Virus record (IMG/VR): IMGVR_UViG_3300012041_000027
Location: 1 to 48,677 of that record
Direction: 5' to 3' (one strand)
DNA length: 48,677 nt
From: a virus
Lineage: Duplodnaviria; Caudoviricetes
The notes under the pieces were generated by a model, which searched no databases, had not been told where the DNA came from, and saw only the letters and a list, made by a program, of their open reading frames with translations. How positions within the stretch are numbered: the first letter of the stretch is position 1; each line of letters opens with the position of its first letter. Of the stretch, positions 240 through 48,645 are shown in pieces. The translations under genes and the position numbers were made by a program.

Positions 240-271
240 CAGAATTAAGGCCACTAAGTAAACTCACTAGT
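240..271 (-). repeat. 5' arm of long-range stem 3 (pairs with 48615-48645)
   Basis: cagaattaaggccactaagtaaactcactagt is the near reverse complement of actagtgagcttatttagtggcctaatcctg. Confidence 0.9.
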
Positions 272-300
272 AAGCGATTTATTATGTTCGCTCTGCATAT

Positions 301-329
301 ATCTCGTAGGCTCTATTAGTGCCCTGATT
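301..329 (-). repeat. 3' arm of long-range stem 2 (pairs with 653-682)
   Basis: atctcgtaggctctattagtgccctgatt vs aatctagggcactaacagaacctacgagat. Confidence 0.9.
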
Positions 330-331
330 AG

Positions 332-433
332 TTACTTGTTATGCTCGCACTTGCATGGTTTTGGAAAAGCCTTGTCGATTGGCTTATCACAAACGTGGCA
401 CATCCATGTATGAAGTAGGATGTTATACCACAT
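332..433 (-). CDS. 33-aa Cys-rich peptide (MWYNILLHTWMCHVCDKPIDKAFPKPCKCEHNK), not in ORF track
   Basis: TGATG coupling to upstream ORF; CxxC and CxC motifs; stop lies just inside the stem-2 arm. Confidence 0.65.
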   Translation of the reverse strand: MWYNILLHTWMCHVCDKPIDKAFPKPCKCEHNK

Positions 434-639
434 CAAAAACCACCAACATCATTCACGTTAGAGAACATCTCTCTCGTAACGATGTCATACACGCTTCTCG
501 TTTCAGGCGTAGAAGCTTTGTATTTGTAGAGCCAGACCTGAGCAGCGTAGAGATTGTCGAATATGCAATGAACATATCCGTTCTCACACTGAATCATGTA
601 GACTAGCTTGTAGTTCTTCCACTTGTAGTTACTCTCCAT
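433..639 (-). CDS. Small early hypothetical protein
   Basis: ATG at 637-639 preceded by GAAGGGTG; ORF track 433..645. Confidence 0.75.
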   Translation of the reverse strand: MESNYKWKNYKLVYMIQCENGYVHCIFDNLYAAQVWLYKYKASTPETRSVYDIVTREMFSNVNDVGGF

Positions 640-652
640 TAACACCCTTCAC

Positions 653-682
653 AATCTAGGGCACTAACAGAACCTACGAGAT
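653..682 (-). repeat. 5' arm of long-range stem 2
   Basis: Reverse complement of 301-329 with two G-U pairs and one bulge. Confidence 0.9.
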
Positions 683-716
683 TACCTGTAACGCATTACT
701 TATGCGCCGCAGGCAA

Positions 717-749
717 AGGATTGTGGATTCTATGAAGTCTACCAATCTA
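717..749 (-). repeat. 3' arm of long-range stem 1 (pairs with 1477-1509)
   Basis: aggattgtggattctatgaagtctaccaatcta vs tagactggtagactttagagaacccacaatcct. Confidence 0.9.
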
Positions 750-760
750 AGGTTAACTAA

Positions 761-1456
761 CTAGTTCTCGTCCTCTTCGTCCTCTTCCGATTCATCATCC
801 GATTCATCATCGGAATCATCATCGGATTCGTCATCATCGTCAGGAACGTCGATGTCATCCAATTCCGGTGACTCATCAGAAGAAGAAACTTCCTCATCTT
901 TCGCCGGTTGAAGAACCACCCCGTTTTCATCAACGAGTGAAGAAGCCCAAAGACCTTTGGCAATCTGGTCCTTGATGAATGAACGCTGTTGTTCTGCCAA
1001 TTCCTCAAAGGACGGAACATGGACAGCATGCGTTCTCTTCATGAAAGCTTGCGTTTGAATCCAAATGCTTGCAAGATTCTCCGCATGCTTTTTGTCCATC
1101 GCAAGTCTCTGTTCAATGATGAATCGAACAAGACCGGACTTCTGTGATTGGTCTTGAATAGACTGGGAACGCCTAATCAAGTCGGCACCACGAAGGATAG
1201 CTTCCTTGAGAAGCCTGTTGGACAATCCCGTTTTTTCGACTGCGGTAATGCAGTCTTTTACGGTGACTTCCGGCGCATCCAAGAAGTCATAATCCCACTT
1301 CTTGACAACACGCGAAACAACCTTGCCTTGCTTGTTCTTTCGCGGCTTGGGAATACCAAAGGTTGTTACCTCTGTAGTTCCCTTTACGCCCTTACCACGA
1401 CGTGCAACGATACACGCGTGAAGTTTGAGAATCGCGTTCTTTACAATCTCACCCAT
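761..1456 (-). CDS. Early hypothetical protein, basic N-terminus and long Asp/Glu tail
   Basis: 231-aa ORF with AGGTG RBS; no family recognised. Confidence 0.85.
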   Translation of the reverse strand: MGEIVKNAILKLHACIVARRGKGVKGTTEVTTFGIPKPRKNKQGKVVSRVVKKWDYDFLDAPEVTVKDCITAVEKTGLSNRLLKEAILRGADLIRRSQSIQDQSQKSGLVRFIIEQRLAMDKKHAENLASIWIQTQAFMKRTHAVHVPSFEELAEQQRSFIKDQIAKGLWASSLVDENGVVLQPAKDEEVSSSDESPELDDIDVPDDDDESDDDSDDESDDESEEDEEDEN

Positions 1457-1476
1457 TCTACACCTACTCTCAGGAA

Positions 1477-1509
1477 TAGACTGGTAGACTTTAGAGAACC
1501 CACAATCCT
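1477..1509 (-). repeat. 5' arm of long-range stem 1
   Basis: 33 bp with 2 G-U and 2 true mismatches against 717-749. Confidence 0.9.
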
Positions 1510-1623: not shown

Positions 1624-1643
1624 TATTCGGTTGTCAAAGAGCT
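1624..1643 (-). promoter_or_regulatory. boxA-like antitermination element
   Basis: Minus strand AGCTCTTTGACAACCGAATA resembles rrn boxA (E. coli TGCTCTTTAACA). Confidence 0.65.
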
Positions 1644-22718: not shown

Positions 22719-24131
22719 ATGATTAACTTTGGGCAACTCTCCAGAAGATTCATTCCACCTAACGCTCAACAGCCAAACAGGAATAGATTTGGTAATATGT
22801 TCAATCAGCCTATGATTATGGACGAAACAGGTAATAATGTCTATAATCCTGGCTATAATATGCAACAACCAGAACAAGAACAACCACTACCTATGCAACA
22901 GGAATTACCTCCTCAAATTCGACCGAGGCAATTCCAGCCTCAACCAATGGAACAGCCACAAATGCCACCACAAGCGGCAGTTCCACAAACTCCTATTTCT
23001 AGGCAACCAATGATGCCTCAGCAACAAGAACAACCGTTGCCAATGCAGCCATTTCCAACATCTCCACCACAAGCTCCACCTGAATTTGACTTTGCATCTG
23101 CTTATGAGAAAATCAATAAACGGCCACAAAGGTTAGCTTATCAGGAAGCTGTTAATAGGGGACCAGAACAGATTAAACGTAGTAAATGGATGCGTTTATT
23201 AGCTGCTGCTGGTGCTGGTGGTGCAGCTTTAGGTGGAACTGACCCTGCTGAAGCTGCAAGAGCTGGTACTGAGGCTTATAATGCTCCACAAGCTCGTGAA
23301 AATGCTAGGTATAAAGAAAGGGTTGCTGGGTTAGGTAATCTTGCTAATATGGAAGATAGTGATATGCAAGATAGGCTTAGATTATTAGAGATACAGAGAG
23401 GTGAATTTTGGAAAGGTAAAGGTGACGTTAGAGAAACTGAGAAAATGGCTATTGAGAAGAGAGATGCAGCAATTCGTGAGGCAGATCTTTCCAATAGGAA
23501 TAGATTCACTAACGCTCAGATTGACCAGATTAAGGAAGAAATCAATAAGAGTCAGACAAGGACTTGGGTTGATAAAACTAGGGGTATTCAATACGAACAA
23601 AAACCCACTGGTGAAATTGTTTCGCATAAGATTGATTCCTCTACTCAAGAGAGAGTTAGAGAAGCTGGTGATACTGCTGGTTCTGTTGCTGAGGCAGAAG
23701 AGAAGTATAAGAAAGCACATGATATGCGCCTTATTCAAGGTGATATTGATGTTGCTGGTCTGCAAACAGAGAGTAGAGAGAATATTGCAGATACCAATAG
23801 ACAGAAGGCTATTGATTTGGCAGTTACTAAGGGTAAATTAGCTGCTGAGAAAGAGCCTGATAAGGCTAGAAAAGGTGTTATCATTAATGCTACAGAGAGT
23901 GTTGCTAGGGGACAATTACCACCTGATGCGTTAGATTACATTAAAGTTAATCCCGAAAATGGTGGGATTTACTCTGAAGGTCCAAATGCCACAACTGAGC
24001 AATTAGTTAAAGATTTGATTTCTAAGTCTCTTCAGAACTCAGGTTTTGGTGACACTACTTCTGGTTCTGGAACTACTAAAGGCGGAACTAGATTTACTGT
24101 TACTCCTAAAGGCGGCGGGGGTGGATTCTAA
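22719..24131 (+). CDS. Internal virion / DNA ejection protein 2
   Basis: P/Q-rich N-terminus, AG-rich hydrophobic stretch, coiled coil. Confidence 0.65.
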   Translation: MINFGQLSRRFIPPNAQQPNRNRFGNMFNQPMIMDETGNNVYNPGYNMQQPEQEQPLPMQQELPPQIRPRQFQPQPMEQPQMPPQAAVPQTPISRQPMMPQQQEQPLPMQPFPTSPPQAPPEFDFASAYEKINKRPQRLAYQEAVNRGPEQIKRSKWMRLLAAAGAGGAALGGTDPAEAARAGTEAYNAPQARENARYKERVAGLGNLANMEDSDMQDRLRLLEIQRGEFWKGKGDVRETEKMAIEKRDAAIREADLSNRNRFTNAQIDQIKEEINKSQTRTWVDKTRGIQYEQKPTGEIVSHKIDSSTQERVREAGDTAGSVAEAEEKYKKAHDMRLIQGDIDVAGLQTESRENIADTNRQKAIDLAVTKGKLAAEKEPDKARKGVIINATESVARGQLPPDALDYIKVNPENGGIYSEGPNATTEQLVKDLISKSLQNSGFGDTTSGSGTTKGGTRFTVTPKGGGGGF

Positions 24132-27100
24132 TGCCACAAGAACCATTTGTTTATCCTGGTCAAACTAGAACAACTCCTACTCCTGGATTATTGGGTAGAA
24201 CTAGGCCAACTCAGTCTACTCAACAAACAACTCCATTTGGACGTAGGAAATATGATGTTAAAGATAGTGAGACTGGTAAGGAATATGAAATAGAGTGGGA
24301 AGGTCCTAATGATCCCACTGAAGATGAAATTAAGGAGATGTTAAGTATTGATGATAAGGGTCCATATTATGGTGAAAGAGCAGGAAAATCTCATGGTTGG
24401 TTAGCTGACCAATTATGGAACGCTGGAAAGAAAGTTATTGATACTGGAAAAGGACTTTTAGAGAGTACATCTCTCGGTGAAACTGCTAGAATGGGAGATG
24501 AATTAGCTAGAGTTAGAGAAGAAGATGCTAAAGCTAAAGCTGCTGGAGCTTCTGCGGTATCTTCATTAGAGGCTAAACGAAAAGCAGAAAGTGACGAGTA
24601 CTTTGGTAAGGTAAATAAGGCATTACGTAATCCTTTTGCCATTGGAGAGATGGCAGGAAATGCGTTAGATCCCACTGGTGTGTTCATGGGAACTACTAGT
24701 GCTGTGCATGACTCTTATGAATCTTTTAAACGGGGAGATGTTGGTGGTGGTGTTGTTTCTGGTGGATTAGCAGTACTTCCGGCTTTTGGATTAAGACATG
24801 AAATTAAGAAAGCTGGTATTCCTAAGAATCTATTACCACCCGATAATCCGGTTGTTCCACCAGTAACTCCTGTTGGCGGAAATCCAGCTAAAGCTAATGC
24901 ATTACCCCCAATTGAAAAATTACCGGGTGCTCCTGAACCTAACATTAGAAAACAGGGACAGCATAGTATTGGTGTTAAAGTAGAGGATGTTCCAACCTAT
25001 ACTGAACAAGGATATACTATTATTGATACATTCCCTGATGGTTCTGTATTAATGGAACCACCTCCTAGGTCTCGTTTTGGACCTACTCCTGGCTTTGGTA
25101 GAGCTACTGTTGAAGAATTAGGTAGACCTCTTACTCCTTTTGAAGAACACATGAGGAAGAAGAAGGATGAAGAAGGTGGATTACCTCCAGTAGAACCTCC
25201 TACTGAACCACCTACTCCACCTACTCCTCCAGTTGCTCCCGTAACTCCACTTACTCAAACTGGACCATTTGGTGCTGGTAGACCTGCTCCACCTGTTGAA
25301 CCAGTAGAACCACCAACTACAACTACTCCAGTTGCAGGCGGACCTACTATTAATTATGGTAGGACTGATAACATTTACAGTATTCGTAATCAGGGTAGTC
25401 AATTCTTTGTTGAACATCCCTCATTACAAAAACCAGCAGGACCATTTAGGAGCTATAATCAGGCTGATAAGTGGATTAATGACCAGGTTAATCCATTTGA
25501 ACAGTTTCCAGTAGAACCACCTACTCCTAAGCAAGAGCCTGTTCCTCCTGTTACTCCTGTTGAATCTCCTGTTGGGCAACCAGTACCACCTGTTGAGCCA
25601 GTTAATCCCTTATTAGATAGAATTAGGGAACTGGATGAAGCTGGAGCACCTGATTATAAGTATAAAGAATTACTATCACCTAAACAGCAAAAGTGGGGTG
25701 GTAAGGTATCTTGGCGTCAACAAGCTATTGATGAAGCTAGCGTTACAACATCAGCTACAAAAGCTATTGGTAAAGCTGAAGCAACTACTAGGAGCAAGGT
25801 TGCAATTCTTAAGGCTAAAGCTGAGGCAGCTAAGGCAAAACTCAAGGCTTTAAATGCTAAGTTAAATCCTCCAGGAAGTGACAAGGGTTCTGTTTCTGCT
25901 GAACTCCTAACTGCTGGATTAATTGATGATGCCACTGTTGAGCGTTTTCACAATTGGGCTAAAGGTTTAGGTGCCTCATTAAGTGATGCAAATTTACTTC
26001 ATTATTTAAAGGTTGTTGAGAAGAGAGATGATATTTCTAAGGCTTTACAAGGTAATGCTTTATTACCTCCTGAATCAAAAGCTGACAGAATACCAGTAGT
26101 AAAGGATGAACCATTTAGACCGGGACCAAAGGCTAGAGATTATATTGAACAACAGAGAAATAATAGCTATGGTTCTAATCAACATGACGTACAAAGAAGT
26201 CCTTTTGAGCAGAGAAATTATGAAGATTTCTTACGTTCATTAGATTGGAAAGTAGAGCCAATTAAAGGTCAAAGAATATCTCCCAGAGAAATGGGTGACG
26301 CAGCTAGGGATGTTACTCTTAAAGATGTAGATGTAATGGGTCATACTGGAGAGTCTTTAGTTCCTAGAACTGAAAAAGCAGTTAGAAGTCATGTTATTCC
26401 AACTGAAGAACAAGTTCGTAAGTTACTCAGGGATAATGAAGCAATAGCTGATAGAGATTTATTAAGTGCTGATGTTGCCGCTAACCGCTATTTAGCTGGT
26501 GAAGGTGGCGATCCTATGGTCTATAGAGAGATGGCTATAGATTCCTTAAGAAAGGTTAAGGAAGCTGGTTTTAAAGATTTTTCTAAACATGAATTAGCAG
26601 TATATGACCAGGTTGTTGAGAAGTTAGATAATGGCTCTAAGACTATCAATGATTTGAGACGCTCAGGTCCAGATGTTGAGGTTCCAAGAAGTGGTTTTGG
26701 AAGATTATTGGATGTTTTTAAGGCTAAAGAAGAACCAATTAAGAGAGATAAGTTTGGATTACCGGCATTAGAAGTTCCTGATAATGTTCCTAAGGAATCA
26801 TTTAAAGAGTTCGTAGCTAGGACTATGGATGGAATGACTCCTGAGAGATTTAATAGATTGCCAGGAGACATTCGTAATGGCGCTGCTGAATTATATAGAG
26901 AGTCTCAAGCTAAGGTAAATAAAGAACCAGGAACAGTCACTGACATCAATAAGTTAAAGCCTAAGTTCCAAGCCCGTAGAAGTAAGTATGGTGTGTTTAC
27001 TTCTGACCCAGCAGAGATGATTCGCAGAATGAAGGATTCTTTTAAGGAAGTTGATAATATTGATGAGGCTCATTTCATTACTCCCGATGGGAAGATGTAT

Positions 27101-30100
27101 AATCATCTTAGGCCATTAGATTCTCATGGTAGCTCTATGAGAGAAATTGGAATTGATATTTATGAAGCTTTAGAGAAAGCTAATATTATTCGTGTTGGTG
27201 CTCCTAATGCTATAGAAGTAGGTATGCCAATATCTAAGACTCAGGCTAAGTTAATTCATGATATGATGATGTCAAATAAAGATCCTAATATGTATGTAGA
27301 AGTGAATAGCGAGAGGGTTCAAAGGCAATGGAAAGCATTTGATGAAAGAGCTACTCCTGAAGCTATTAGAGAGTGGACCAATGCTCAATTCGAGCCATCT
27401 AATACTTTTGCTCCTAAGCCTAAGCAACCTCAAGTTCCTAAGTCTATAGAAGAATTAGAGGCAGCATGGGAAGCCGGTGATCCCAAAAAACTAAAGCCTA
27501 AGTACTCTACAAATTTAACGAAAGAAGAGAAGCTTGTTTTGAATAAGGCTTTAGATAGGCGTCTAGCCCAAGCTAAAGCTCAAGGAGATACCAAGGCAAT
27601 AGCTAGTATTGGAGAAGCTAGGAAACTAATTAATGGTCCACAACCACCATCTATTGCACAACAAGTAAAGGACCATGCTGTTAAGGTTGTAGCCGATAAT
27701 AAGGCTATGCATGAACAGATGCAAGTGAAGAATAAGCCATCTGGAATGAAGCATGAACCAGTATTAGCCGACCCAGGCGGTAAATTAACTCCTGATGAAA
27801 GAGCTTGGATGGAAAAGCATCCATTTGTCCAGGATTTAATGAGATTCCATAGTGATTTGATTCATCACATTATGGAAGTAACTGGCTCAATATGGGCAGA
27901 AGGAATTAGCCATGTAGGATTATCTCTTGATCCTGGTTCTCATGGTATGTCTATATATAATCCACTTACCGGTAAGCATACTATTCTATTCAATTCTTTT
28001 GAGGAAATATTTAATACTCCTGATCCCAGACAAGCAGCTAGAGAATCAGTAACTACTGCTAAACATGAAGCTGCTCATGCTGGAGAAGGTGGTAATGCCG
28101 GAGATGTAGCGTTTACTATTACTGACCAATTAGACCCTCGATTTAAGGATTTCTACAATGATTTAGTTAATCAGGTAAAGGAAGGTGGAGAAGCTGGTGG
28201 TGCAATATCCGGTCATGGAATGGATTGGGTTTACAGATTAGGAGAAATTTATGGCAAATATGGAATCGAACGAACCGCCGAAGCCGCTAAAAGGCTTGAA
28301 TCAATCTTTACCAAAGGTGGTAGATCTGGCGGATACAATCCAGAAATATCGAACTTATTACGCCTCTATCAAGAAAGTAGAAGGAGAGCAGAGACTACGC
28401 CAGACGTTTTCGCAGGAAAGGGAATACAGCAAAAGAGTCCCAAAGCCTGGAAGGGATTTGTTTCTGGGAATAGTGGCAATGCTGGAAAAGGAACTACTTC
28501 CAAACCAGTAACTCCACCATCTAAACCAGTTCCACCAAGAGCAGTAGTAGGTAAAGCTGGATTACTGAATAATAGGAAATTCTCTAGGAAGAATCCTATT
28601 TTTGGTAAGATTTTTGAGAGCTTAATTGCCAATAGAAATGCTGAATTAGCTGCTGGAATACCTCCAAAATTTAGCACATCATTTGTCAATGCAGAAGCTC
28701 AATTGAGACAAGCTGGTTACTTATACAGTGGTAAACCTAACGCTCAAGGTGTATTACCAGCAGGAGTTCCAGCAGGTTATGAGAGAATTACTGGTGGATT
28801 AGGTAAGTTTAGTGGTAAGTATGCTCATCCAGAAATTAGGAAAGTATTAGAGGATTATCTTTCACCTACAAAAACAGGATTATTTAATTCTGCGGTAGAA
28901 GCAGTAGGTAAAGCTAAGTCATTAGCAATGTCATCTGGACTTATTCCTAATAAGCCCTTATTTACTGCTCATGGCTTTAGCATTGCTTCACCTTTCTCTG
29001 GCCGGGCAGTAATGGAAGGTGGATTAAAGAGATGGGGACAAGCAGTTAGGTATGGATTAAACCCCAAACTGGCTGCATCCCATTTAAAGGCTGAAAGGGC
29101 AGATATTATTAGAGCTACGAGAGAGGATAATTATAATCCTAATGTGGACACTAGTATTGGTCATGGCATTACTAAACCATTTAATACTACAACAGGTAAG
29201 TATGGAACTGGCAAGTTTAAGAAATGGACTAATTGGTTAGCTGAAAAACAGCACAAGCATTGGGAAGGACCACTATTTGAACAGATGCTTCCAGCTTTAA
29301 AATGGCAAGGTTGGAAATCTAAACTTGCTGACTTTCAAAAGAAAGGAATGAGTAGAGCTGAGGCAGGTAAAGCTGCTTCTAGGGTAGTTAATGACCATTA
29401 TTCTGGCTATAACACCGATACCTTAATGGAGACTAAGGACTTTAAGACAGTTGCTAGTCTTACTTTCCTAGCTCCTGATTGGTTACGTTCAGCTAAGAAT
29501 ATGGGAATTAATGTTCCCAAGTCTCTCATTACTGAATTGAGAGGTAAAGGAACACCTGAAAGTAGAGCATATTTAAAGGCCGGTGGTAGGATGTTAGCGG
29601 CTTATACTGCTGCTAATCTCTTACAAAAGTCTCTAACCGGCGAATATATGGTAGAAAATGATACAAAAGATAAGTTTACTCTGTTTCTAAATAAGGAGAA
29701 AACATCATATCTTAACCCATTTGGCTCATCAATTGACTTCTTTAAATATCCATTTCTAATGGCTGCTGCTGCCAGTACTGATGGAGAGAAGTTTAGTAAG
29801 GGTGCTGGAGAAATACTATCAGAAGCAGCACAGAATAGACTTTCACCATTAGGCCGGCTTGGAACCGAGTTTATTACAGGTGAAGATTACAAGGGAGAAG
29901 CAAACCTAGCTAGGACTACTGATAGATTTGGTAATTACATTCCAGCTACAACTAGGGGTGCAAATACATTCTCTCAATTGATTAACTTTGGACCACCACA
30001 AGTAGCTCAACCGTGGAATGTTGCAACTGGCAGAGCTACTCCATTAGAGGGTATTCTAAAGGTTGGAGAAATGCCATTTGGATTTAGGAAACCTAAGCCT

Positions 30101-30181
30101 AGACCGGGCAATAGATTAATATTCCCAGGAAATAACTTAGTGCCTAGAGGTAATAGGTTAATCTATGACCAACAGCCCTAA
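24131..30181 (+). CDS. Giant internal virion / polyvalent protein (2016 aa) with HExxH motif
   Basis: Last gene of virion operon; Pro-rich linkers; KHEAAH..GHGMDW. Confidence 0.75.
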   Translation: MPQEPFVYPGQTRTTPTPGLLGRTRPTQSTQQTTPFGRRKYDVKDSETGKEYEIEWEGPNDPTEDEIKEMLSIDDKGPYYGERAGKSHGWLADQLWNAGKKVIDTGKGLLESTSLGETARMGDELARVREEDAKAKAAGASAVSSLEAKRKAESDEYFGKVNKALRNPFAIGEMAGNALDPTGVFMGTTSAVHDSYESFKRGDVGGGVVSGGLAVLPAFGLRHEIKKAGIPKNLLPPDNPVVPPVTPVGGNPAKANALPPIEKLPGAPEPNIRKQGQHSIGVKVEDVPTYTEQGYTIIDTFPDGSVLMEPPPRSRFGPTPGFGRATVEELGRPLTPFEEHMRKKKDEEGGLPPVEPPTEPPTPPTPPVAPVTPLTQTGPFGAGRPAPPVEPVEPPTTTTPVAGGPTINYGRTDNIYSIRNQGSQFFVEHPSLQKPAGPFRSYNQADKWINDQVNPFEQFPVEPPTPKQEPVPPVTPVESPVGQPVPPVEPVNPLLDRIRELDEAGAPDYKYKELLSPKQQKWGGKVSWRQQAIDEASVTTSATKAIGKAEATTRSKVAILKAKAEAAKAKLKALNAKLNPPGSDKGSVSAELLTAGLIDDATVERFHNWAKGLGASLSDANLLHYLKVVEKRDDISKALQGNALLPPESKADRIPVVKDEPFRPGPKARDYIEQQRNNSYGSNQHDVQRSPFEQRNYEDFLRSLDWKVEPIKGQRISPREMGDAARDVTLKDVDVMGHTGESLVPRTEKAVRSHVIPTEEQVRKLLRDNEAIADRDLLSADVAANRYLAGEGGDPMVYREMAIDSLRKVKEAGFKDFSKHELAVYDQVVEKLDNGSKTINDLRRSGPDVEVPRSGFGRLLDVFKAKEEPIKRDKFGLPALEVPDNVPKESFKEFVARTMDGMTPERFNRLPGDIRNGAAELYRESQAKVNKEPGTVTDINKLKPKFQARRSKYGVFTSDPAEMIRRMKDSFKEVDNIDEAHFITPDGKMYNHLRPLDSHGSSMREIGIDIYEALEKANIIRVGAPNAIEVGMPISKTQAKLIHDMMMSNKDPNMYVEVNSERVQRQWKAFDERATPEAIREWTNAQFEPSNTFAPKPKQPQVPKSIEELEAAWEAGDPKKLKPKYSTNLTKEEKLVLNKALDRRLAQAKAQGDTKAIASIGEARKLINGPQPPSIAQQVKDHAVKVVADNKAMHEQMQVKNKPSGMKHEPVLADPGGKLTPDERAWMEKHPFVQDLMRFHSDLIHHIMEVTGSIWAEGISHVGLSLDPGSHGMSIYNPLTGKHTILFNSFEEIFNTPDPRQAARESVTTAKHEAAHAGEGGNAGDVAFTITDQLDPRFKDFYNDLVNQVKEGGEAGGAISGHGMDWVYRLGEIYGKYGIERTAEAAKRLESIFTKGGRSGGYNPEISNLLRLYQESRRRAETTPDVFAGKGIQQKSPKAWKGFVSGNSGNAGKGTTSKPVTPPSKPVPPRAVVGKAGLLNNRKFSRKNPIFGKIFESLIANRNAELAAGIPPKFSTSFVNAEAQLRQAGYLYSGKPNAQGVLPAGVPAGYERITGGLGKFSGKYAHPEIRKVLEDYLSPTKTGLFNSAVEAVGKAKSLAMSSGLIPNKPLFTAHGFSIASPFSGRAVMEGGLKRWGQAVRYGLNPKLAASHLKAERADIIRATREDNYNPNVDTSIGHGITKPFNTTTGKYGTGKFKKWTNWLAEKQHKHWEGPLFEQMLPALKWQGWKSKLADFQKKGMSRAEAGKAASRVVNDHYSGYNTDTLMETKDFKTVASLTFLAPDWLRSAKNMGINVPKSLITELRGKGTPESRAYLKAGGRMLAAYTAANLLQKSLTGEYMVENDTKDKFTLFLNKEKTSYLNPFGSSIDFFKYPFLMAAAASTDGEKFSKGAGEILSEAAQNRLSPLGRLGTEFITGEDYKGEANLARTTDRFGNYIPATTRGANTFSQLINFGPPQVAQPWNVATGRATPLEGILKVGEMPFGFRKPKPRPGNRLIFPGNNLVPRGNRLIYDQQP

Positions 30182-30402
30182 AAGTCATTGATAAACTCTA
30201 CATTCTCCGCTTTCCAACCTTTTGGTCCTTTAACTGGTTGGAACTGAACTACTGGACCTTTAGGGATATTGGGAGGACTTATCATTATAAGTTCTTCCCA
30301 ATCTCCCTTATAGTCCGCAAAATGGAAAAAATACTCTACTCCATTCTCGTCAAGAATAAAGCCATAATGTGAGGGTTTAATTGTCTTTACCCTTCCGAGC
30401 AT
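30178..30402 (-). CDS. Cold-shock domain protein
   Basis: GRVK..YGFI..EYFFH..KGPKG..AENV (RNP1/RNP2-like). Confidence 0.9.
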   Translation of the reverse strand: MLGRVKTIKPSHYGFILDENGVEYFFHFADYKGDWEELIMISPPNIPKGPVVQFQPVKGPKGWKAENVEFINDF

Positions 30403-35756: not shown

Positions 35757-35769
35757 TCTCCTTGTGAAG

Positions 35770-35853
35770 TGCGACGGGAGAGACTCGAACTCTCAATCCC
35801 TTACGGGCCTAAGATTTTAAGTCTTATGCGTATACCGATTCCGCCACCGTCGC
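35770..35853 (-). tRNA. tRNA-Leu, anticodon UAA; CCA not encoded
   Basis: Acceptor GCGACGG/CCGTCGC-A, D-arm TGGCGGAATCGGTATACGC, anticodon arm TAAGA-CTTAAAA-TCTTA, long variable arm, T-arm GAGAG-TTCGAGT-CTCTC. Confidence 0.95.
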
Positions 35854-47639: not shown

Positions 47640-48075
47640 GTTTAGTGAATACAGAAATTTGGTTGTTTACTGGTTACTATCTGGTTACTTACTGGTTACT
47701 TACTGGTGCTTTACTTCCCTCTAGGCTACCCGTAAGTTGTTGAGCCTGAACAAGTTAGCCGGCTTTCCCCTAGTATAGCATATTCTTATCCTTATGTCAA
47801 GTGTCCTATTTTGAGGTCAGGGGGTTGTTGGTTTTGTATTGTTTATATTTTTTTTTTGTTTTTTTATATAAAAATATAAAAACCCCACCAACCCACCATG
47901 TAAATATTACACTAATAGCATAGGGTAAGAAAGTGACGTATTCCCTCTACTTAGCTTAACTCCTTTAGAATCAACAACTTACAGCTAGTGTATAGGGAAG
48001 TAACAGGCCAGTAAATACACAGAATGTATCTAGTAAGTAACCGGAAAACAACAAAATTTATGTAACAGTGAAACT
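47640..48075. repeat. Large diverged palindrome with 11-bp tandem repeats; candidate origin
   Basis: Nested inverted blocks around an AT-rich centre near 47860. Confidence 0.75.
47772..47800 (-). promoter_or_regulatory. Sigma70 early promoter
   Basis: TTGACA-17 bp-TATACT with extended TG. Confidence 0.85.
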
Positions 48076-48175: not shown

Positions 48176-48224
48176 AAAAAAATAGGGGAATCACTACCCA
48201 ATTAAGGATAGCAATTCCCCTATT
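48176..48224 (-). terminator. Intrinsic terminator closing the stem-flanked operon
   Basis: AAUAGGGGAAUUGCUAUCC-loop-GGGUAGUGAUUCCCCUAUUUUUUU; wobbles fit the minus strand. Confidence 0.85.
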
Positions 48225-48241: not shown

Positions 48242-48379
48242 TCAGTATTTCTTTGCAGGAGAATATTCCACTCTCTTACTCATCTCATACCGAACCAAGC
48301 GCGGCGGATTAAATGCCCGCTTATACTTGGTTGGTATCTTTGGCAGCTTCTTAACCTCTACTCTTCCCCACTTATCCAT
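48242..48379 (-). CDS. 45-aa basic peptide, not in ORF track
   Basis: GAGGT RBS; MDKWGRVEVKKLPK... Confidence 0.55.
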   Translation of the reverse strand: MDKWGRVEVKKLPKIPTKYKRAFNPPRLVRYEMSKRVEYSPAKKY

Positions 48380-48587
48380 TGATTACCTCTTTCTTTGTGA
48401 TGGTTGCTGTTTGTGAAGTATCGCTTGGATTTGTCCACTCCTGATAGTTGGACGCATACAAGAAATGTTCATTTACGGCAAAACCAGCCCCGCGGAGATT
48501 TGCGTAAGCTGATTCGATTGAACCAAAAACGAGAGATAACCACGGCTGTTTCGTGGTGAAGAACCGGACGATGTAAACGTGCTTCAT
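48372..48587 (-). CDS. Small early hypothetical protein
   Basis: AAGGAG RBS, 71 aa. Confidence 0.8.
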   Translation of the reverse strand: MKHVYIVRFFTTKQPWLSLVFGSIESAYANLRGAGFAVNEHFLYASNYQEWTNPSDTSQTATITKKEVING

Positions 48588-48614: not shown

Positions 48615-48645
48615 ACTAGTGAGCTTATTTAGTGGCCTAATCCTG
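48615..48645 (-). repeat. 3' arm of long-range stem 3 (pairs with 240-271 across the junction)
   Basis: Near reverse complement of 240-271. Confidence 0.9.

Follow-up and report, generated by a model that had tools for sequence, protein, structure and literature searches.

A phage gene array with predicted gene-framing RNA helices and an rRNA-type boxA

The described parts of the ribosomal RNA (rRNA) operon include boxA and boxC, rrnTAC (NusA/B/E/G, SuhB, S4) and leader-trailer helices that are cut by RNase III (PMC10250234, PMC8632103). According to these accounts, boxC of the Enterobacteriaceae forms part of the 5′ strand of a leader-trailer helix of 25-40 bp and is overlapped by the RNase III site, and the boxA-bound complex is proposed to hold boxC ready for the trailer as it emerges; when boxC was placed 6 or 12 nt farther off, only 50% or 25% of the activity was lost. 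Apart from any action of RNase III, the 16S leader-trailer helix is also reported to be required for 30S biogenesis (PMC10250234). Leader-trailer helices with boxA are regarded as dedicated to rRNA. Here we describe a phage clade in which ordinary genes appear to stand where 16S and 23S would be. The stretch analysed, hereafter the window, is the whole of IMG/VR record IMGVR_UViG_3300012041_000027 (48,677 nt), a 48.7-kb phage record classed as linear yet 100% complete, and the element in question is a minus-strand array of small genes, most of them enclosed by long-range RNA stems.

The studied unit, on the minus strand, begins with a non-coding leader, continues through 1456-1 and over the contig ends, and finishes with a terminator at 48224-48176. 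A first-pass annotation, made from the sequence letters alone, had described three inverted-repeat pairs bracketing consecutive coding units, with 6 of 9 imperfect positions being G-U, and both claims held. Stem 1 (1477-1509/717-749, minus strand) has 29 Watson-Crick pairs, 2 G-U pairs and 2 mismatches; stem 2 (653-682/301-329, minus strand) has 27 Watson-Crick pairs, 2 G-U pairs and one bulge; stem 3 (240-271/48615-48645, minus strand) has 28 Watson-Crick pairs, 2 G-U pairs, 1 A-C and one bulge. Our recount of the nine non-Watson-Crick positions gave 6 G-U, 2 A-C and 1 other. No dinucleotide shuffle of the 2168-nt unit matched even the weakest stem (0/300, best 45.5 vs 49). Duplex energies for stems 1, 2 and 3 are -50, -50 and -44 kcal/mol on the mRNA strand, compared with -43, -41 and -41 kcal/mol on the opposite strand. 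When the joined 2168-nt transcript was folded through the junction, the arms paired with their own partners at mean probabilities of 0.88, 0.95 and 0.89, respectively. The arms sit as tightly against the gene ends as had been claimed, with 11, 2 and 1 nt from the stop codon to the 3′ arm and 20, 13 and 27 nt from the 5′ arm to the start. The short hairpins noticed between the units are also real, both folding above chance (z about -3).

Stem 3 and the 80-aa gene require the window end to be joined to the window start, a join that was deduced and not read directly. Joining the two gives an unbroken 80-codon frame, relatives are colinear over this point and contigs of two other runs extend beyond position 1, which together suggest that the end adjoins the start. 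The features of the unit, in the order of transcription, are as follows (ORF, open reading frame).

1643-2075, minus: non-coding leader upstream of boxA; no Rfam family, promoter not located
1624-1642, minus: rRNA-type boxA, GCUCUUUGACAAC followed by a CGAAUA extension; single copy in the genome
1477-1509, minus: stem 1, 5′ arm; predicted cut between 1507 and 1506, alternative after 1493
761-1456, minus: 231-aa gene, member of an orphan family found across the clade; RRGKG motif at the N terminus, helical core, acidic tail
717-749, minus: stem 1, 3′ arm; predicted product 3′ end at 718
685-713, minus: spacer hairpin between units 1 and 2 (folding, shuffle z)
653-682, minus: stem 2, 5′ arm; predicted product 5′ end at 680, C-G at two positions inhibitory to E. 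coli RNase III
433-639, minus: 68-aa gene, no assigned function (ORF)
332-436, minus: 34-aa Cys/His-rich gene, no assigned function (ORF)
301-329, minus: stem 2, 3′ arm (pairing)
272-293, minus: spacer hairpin between units 2 and 3 (folding, shuffle z)
240-271, minus: stem 3, 5′ arm; predicted product 5′ end at 270
1-212, minus: 80-aa gene, first part; continues at 48677-48647 over the contig ends
48647-48677, minus: 80-aa gene, last codons and stop (ORF)
48615-48645, minus: stem 3, 3′ arm (pairing)
48372-48587, minus: 71-aa gene, outside any stem (ORF)
48242-48379, minus: 45-aa basic gene, outside any stem (ORF)
48176-48224, minus: strong intrinsic terminator closing the unit, 19 bp and a U tract (z -7.6)

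A terminase scan returned 46 loci, 41 of them at 71-88% identity, and the 22 with at least 3.2 kb upstream were examined. After removal of duplicates, loci that were too short and two distant loci (32-33% identity, no stem series), 13 distinct relatives were retained. Gene-enclosing stems are present at the locus in 13 of the 14 distinct close genomes, window included, with up to six in series; the exception is L015 (L numbers are our locus handles), where none was found. From a helicase scan 80 of 191 loci were kept and 55 examined. Stems occurred mainly in the closer group, including the new genomes L186 and L188, and most of the distant loci contained none. Under strand-neutral scoring, 47 stems (scores 36-57) were found in 27 kb, against 9 (best 39) in 92 kb of structural genes, the 27 kb being 15 regions delimited after the stems had been seen. 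Dropping three overlapping or nested alignments left 44 stems, every one of which encloses ORFs on the sense strand. The median arm-to-start distance is 15.5 nt and the median stop-to-arm distance 8 nt (20 nt or less in 37/44), ORFs take up 70% or more of the loop in 40/44, and adjacent units abut with a median gap of 0 nt. Moreover, the arms pair with their own partners at a mean of -47 kcal/mol, compared with -15 for neighbouring arms, in all 29 adjacent pairs.

The first-pass annotation took the G-U positions as a sign of selection on RNA pairing and proposed a search for compensatory changes in related phages. Such changes are present. In a MAFFT alignment of nine stems around homologues of the 231-aa gene, 92% of cells are paired and 20 of 25 pairs have changed on both sides; none of 500 shuffles reached this level, and slid controls gave 23-46%. 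A strand-neutral count over 39 distinct stems gave 95 G-U against 25 A-C pairs on the mRNA strand, a figure that, like the covariation, is descriptive, the stems having been picked by pairing and being related, with counts that are not independent. G-U pairs occupy fixed columns in the profile of 36 distinct stems. On these comparisons it is hard to doubt that the stems are conserved RNA helices under RNA-level selection. A covarying 25-40 bp helix of the leader-trailer type surrounds the unit, as in an rRNA operon. In the L031/L172 array an outer helix beginning inside boxA surrounds both inner units, giving a nested arrangement.

The boxA at 1624-1642 (minus strand), the one match in the genome, did not figure in the first-pass account. 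It lies upstream of the first stem or gene run at 11 of 16 clade loci, and in L008 it turns along with the whole boxA-stem-gene module (L008:5081-5945, plus strand), whose orientation with respect to the terminase is reversed there. A canonical sigma-70 promoter stands ~80 nt before boxA in L036 and L037. None was found before boxA in the window, where a scan of the leader gave 4 promoter-like sites vs 4.6 in shuffles; folding of this leader (1643-2075) is not clearly above chance (z -1.8) and a structured RNA is not supported. No boxB-like hairpin above chance lies beside boxA (z -0.4), and the spacers before the next unit contain no second boxA (single genome match; spacers median 0 nt). The N protein family had no match among the 69 scanned ORFs, N proteins being short and divergent.

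Across 185,579 species genomes, a boxA with the outer motif of the stems no more than 30 nt downstream was found at 10 loci, of which 7 lead into 16S, 1 leads into 23S and 2 stop at a contig edge. The rRNA loci among them come from Geobacteraceae, delta proteobacteria and Bdellovibrionota and, having been chosen by the search pattern, do not name the host. The boxA motif is common to the phage locus, rRNA leaders and the rRNA spacer. Among viruses, the extended boxA was found in about 260 stretches. A stem at or just after boxA occurs in 15 of the 70 distinct viral loci with enough flank, compared with 14 of 817 random anchors; the 15 include one clade member and two that enclose no ORF. The boxA-plus-stem layout recurs in unrelated viral contigs. 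In several of these (L047, L049, L085, L090, L094, L065, L070, L076, L095) the helix includes boxA or its 3′ extension, a layout resembling the 16S stalks of L246, L249 and L250, and the viral boxA loci L050, L059 and L079 have two or three serial stems. Because boxA can repress translation of a nearby gene, e.g. suhB (10.1101/091223), its effect here need not be positive and could, while the unit is being transcribed, be translational repression of that kind.

The 36 distinct stems share a 26-column profile, in which the 5′ arm reads roughly WUUGURRRUUYNNUWRGUSSSCY. Published determinants of RNase III cleavage include a minimum helix of 11 bp, a proximal box (pb) of G-C, W-W, A-U and W-W and a distal box (db) of U-A and U-G, with C-G at pb2 and pb4 inhibiting the E. 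coli enzyme (PMC1540722). The db was placed at +9/+10 from the 22-bp rule (PMC3867540). The E. coli 16S RNase III ends at -115/+33 (PMC9959188) lie inside boxC and not 6 nt beyond it; all registers were therefore scored, and the preference moved from mid-stem to the outer register. With two misregistered profile rows dropped, a cut before column 1 scored 4.47 of 6 against pb and db over 34 stems, and the next of 43 registers scored 3.15. Column permutation gave p = 0.0001 with pb3 relaxed to W-W (our choice; the phage pb3 is U-A instead of A-U) and p = 0.0045 with pb3 strict, the box rules being those of E. coli. The two overhang positions are paired in 34/34 and 32/34 stems, compared with 19/34 two columns farther out. 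Core columns 1-23 are paired except for 12, 13 and 15, so that the helix next to the predicted cut reaches the 11-bp minimum. The outer register is joint best in 26/34 stems and, judged by eye, recurs in the non-profile loci L267 (twice), L269, L265 and L242, not in L181. An RNase III cut is thus predicted near the outer base of each stem, and the products in the window would be 1506-718, 680-301 and 270-48614. Because an rRNA-type boxA lies upstream and the fit to the RNase III boxes is conserved, the analogy with pre-rRNA appears closer than the first-pass annotation had proposed.

The reading we favour, to which we give a probability of roughly two in three, is that of a phage operon built like an rRNA operon, in which RNase III would cut the stems close to their outer base and so release end-paired single-gene mRNAs. 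Host polymerase and boxA-bound Nus factors would transcribe the unit, each helix closing as its 3′ arm emerges. NusB/NusE would bind boxA, and the complex would help the first 5′ arm to meet its 3′ partner, as has been proposed for 16S rRNA. Host RNase III would cut immediately 5′ of the consensus WUUGURRRUU and leave a helix of about 23-26 bp with a 2-nt 3′ overhang, and the paired mRNA ends may slow exonuclease decay and keep expression high.

A number of observations weigh against this reading. boxA is missing from 5 of 16 stem-bearing loci (L001, L019, L022, L186, L188), and it is present without an enclosing stem in L015 and L189. One boxA serves up to six stems, and that of the window is 133 nt from the first arm. 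Moreover, the 231-aa family gene is unenclosed in L008, L036, L037, L175 and L189. A 5-of-6 site occurs in 56% of random duplexes, and therefore only the register common to the stems counts. Two of the window stems carry pairs that inhibit the E. coli enzyme (stem 2, C-G at pb2 and pb4; stem 3, C-G at pb4). An outer cut leaves the inner half of the profile unexplained, along with the U-A that is invariant at column 14 and the column 15 mismatch. On the symmetric profile, three non-E. coli 16S stalks did not score above random duplexes, and on the oriented profile the E. coli 23S stalk scored 10.9, below the null 95th percentile of 13.5. The stems are related to one another, so that their counts are not independent, and transcription-linked mutation bias could contribute to the G-U excess, although these pairs keep to fixed columns.

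The mid-stem cut that the first-pass annotation expected would involve the same machinery, with the main cut at the pseudo-dyad between columns 13 and 14 or with both sites used in turn. It would account for a column 14 U that is invariant and a column 15 mismatched in 17/36; the best symmetry axis lies at column 13.5, both strands read YYNNU^NRR with U at -1 in 59/68 half-sites, and at least 11 bp lie on either side. However, this axis scores 0.191 vs 0.182 for the edge axis, the half-sites fit the boxes poorly (2.15 and 2.21 of 6) and G-C stands at pb2 in most 5′ arms. Cuts in the window would fall after 1493/732, 667/315 and 257/48628, with a clamp of only 9-15 bp left. The published determinants point instead to the outer stem base, making mid-stem cleavage only the second-best reading and, in our view, an unlikely one. 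Less likely again is that the helices act uncut, either as a gene loop bringing the stop codon near the ribosome-binding site or as insulation or protection within a long transcript. Conservation of the arms on known RNase III recognition positions, and pairing that decays just past the two overhang positions, speak against this idea, while the arms hugging the gene ends, the E. coli antideterminants on 2/3 window stems and the RNase III-independent role of the 16S helix (PMC10250234) would suit it.

Two further explanations depart from RNA processing of this kind. Units might be excised and ligated into covalent circular mRNAs, as the first-pass annotation had raised and as in archaeal pre-rRNA circles; paired 5′-P and 3′-OH ends would presumably be held together. 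The bulge-helix-bulge consists of two 3-nt bulges around 4 bp. It is absent from all 47 stems (gaps 0-2 nt), and no RNA ligase family was found among 69 scanned ORFs, most of which are without any match; nothing supports circularisation, and we think it very improbable. Alternatively, genes might be inverted or excised at the arms, which would then be sites of DNA recombination or hairpins of single-stranded DNA. Units are indeed reordered among genomes with shared segments ending at arms, but G-U exceeds A-C on the mRNA strand by the counts given above, 44/44 enclosed units face the same way, every stem has its own sequence and the 69 ORFs, most of them unannotated, include no detected site-specific recombinase. 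No inverted or excised joints were seen over positions 1-2050 in 14 low-depth, gapped DNA contigs from three runs, in which rare forms are possible. This last explanation seems to us barely credible.

Arm-gene-arm units change order among genomes, and the segments that genomes share end at arms. L022 and L038 share 477 nt at 95% identity, from a 5′ arm to just beyond the next 5′ arm, and L019 and L026 share 642 nt at 86% identity, from a 3′ arm to a 5′ arm; the neighbours differ in both cases. From these two cases we infer exchange by homologous recombination at similar arms, perhaps aided by the Sak4-like protein, so that similar arms would be crossover points for gene swapping between phages. 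In four genomes, with different neighbours, a conserved non-coding element lies between two units, recognised by its conservation at the following positions.

L019:4533-4657, minus: ~100-nt element
L022:2430-2554, minus: ~100-nt element
L026:4656-4780, minus: ~100-nt element
L038:5219-5343, minus: ~100-nt element

The element is closed by a 9-11 bp stem that differs among copies, and it is absent from the window. It has no Rfam match, and its core pattern was found only in five viral contigs, all of this clade. It is possibly a small RNA in the place held by tRNA in the rRNA spacer.

The 231-aa family comprises 91 clusters at 50% identity, and its gene is first, second, third or last in different arrays, being unenclosed when last. 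The 231-aa protein has no match in Pfam, PHROG, NCBIfam or PADLOC and none by fold. Its structure model (pLDDT 78.6, pTM 0.47) gave no Foldseek match, a best VIA Z of 6.1, to helical bundles, and atlas matches at chance level. When close relatives of the 231-aa and the 80-aa gene were searched for directly, no loci and no proteins were returned, and the enclosed proteins generally had no family or fold match. The unit is presumably expressed early, and the frames flag orphan genes, one family of which is clade-wide, as candidate first-acting phage proteins. After the stop codon of the 231-aa family and before the 3′ arm, a UYAACC-like motif is present in 7/9 aligned units (window 750-760) and could pair weakly with the ribosome-binding region.

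A family scan of the 69 ORFs showed that the window encodes a terminase, an SU10-type adaptor, a family A polymerase, a Sak4-like annealing protein and an SNF2 helicase. Identity to cultured phages is at most 33%, and the sequencing runs containing the phage are of freshwater-sediment DNA; none of the runs listed for positions 1-2300 is of RNA, which does not bear on expression. The sole Rfam match is one tRNA-Leu (TAA, 35769-35853), far from the studied region. A 2016-aa protein with no family match is encoded at 24131-30181 and a cold-shock-domain protein at 30178-30402. Beyond the terminator, 47650-48064 is a separate feature, a long imperfect inverted repeat of short tandem units with 108-nt arms (75%). 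It contains a TTGACA-17-TATACT promoter at 47800-47772, a similar repeat directly follows the array in relatives, and it is a candidate origin or genome-end element. On the plus strand at about 2058-2074 lies a 17-nt motif like GGAAAGGTAGATACTGA, found upstream of late genes in 10/17 clade loci checked and a candidate late promoter or packaging signal.

It is tempting to see here a widespread phage strategy in which protein genes are exchangeable pre-rRNA-like modules, a boxA-led array yielding, by way of host rRNA transcription and RNase III, end-clamped, long-lived single-gene mRNAs and the arms serving as crossover points for trading host-takeover genes, in effect an RNA-defined counterpart of the gene-cassette array. 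We hold this view tentatively, with the odds somewhat against it. The clade would nevertheless offer a natural test, on a non-ribosomal substrate, of an open question, namely whether a 5′ arm is brought to its distant partner by the boxA complex. It also hints at undescribed bacterial mRNA processing, possibly stabilisation, and could serve expression design.

A literature search with little subscription coverage and no supplements returned no report of a gene-framing helix layout. Integron gene cassettes are small variable genes bounded by imperfect inverted repeats, the attC arms being adjacent and acting as DNA with the integrase. The phage array likewise has small variable genes, each between imperfect inverted repeats; unlike in integrons, the arms flank the gene and show a G-U bias on the mRNA strand, and an integrase was not found among the 69 ORFs, which are mostly unannotated. 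As at the T7 early RNase III sites described in PMC1540722 and PMC3867540, e.g. R1.1, the phage helices appear to fit the proximal and distal box rules, and a polycistronic RNA would here too be divided into separate mRNAs. T7 sites of the R1.1 type are local hairpins, whereas the phage strands are 160-770 nt apart and enclose whole genes. With lambda nut/N, in the accounts of PMC10250234 and PMC8632103, the array shares a phage boxA and the predicted use of host Nus factors. Unlike at nut, the boxA is of the rRNA type with an extension, no N-like protein or conserved boxB was identified, and helices enclose genes downstream. The long-range RNase III sites reported from Bacillus subtilis (10.1101/2023.03.12.532304) are likewise intramolecular duplexes, of 10-36 bp with paired cuts no more than 505 nt apart. 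Those sites are scattered, whereas the phage helices are fitted to gene boundaries, serial and kept clade-wide while the genes change. boxA-regulated mRNAs such as suhB also have boxA before protein-coding genes; in those mRNAs the boxA complex blocks translation from a start codon close by, and an enclosing helix is not described (10.1101/091223).

The rRNA operon, in contrast, shares with the array an upstream boxA, a 25-40 bp helix joining the flanks, a boxC-like UGUGGG in the 5′ arm, serial units, putative RNase III-type boxes and a strong terminator at the end. The array differs in being phage-borne, in having up to six abutting units with variable protein-coding cargo and no 16S, 23S or 5S rRNA, in lacking a second boxA and tRNA in the spacers, and in the absence of boxA from 5/16 loci. 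The arrangement is real and conserved, and it resembles an rRNA operon without being one.
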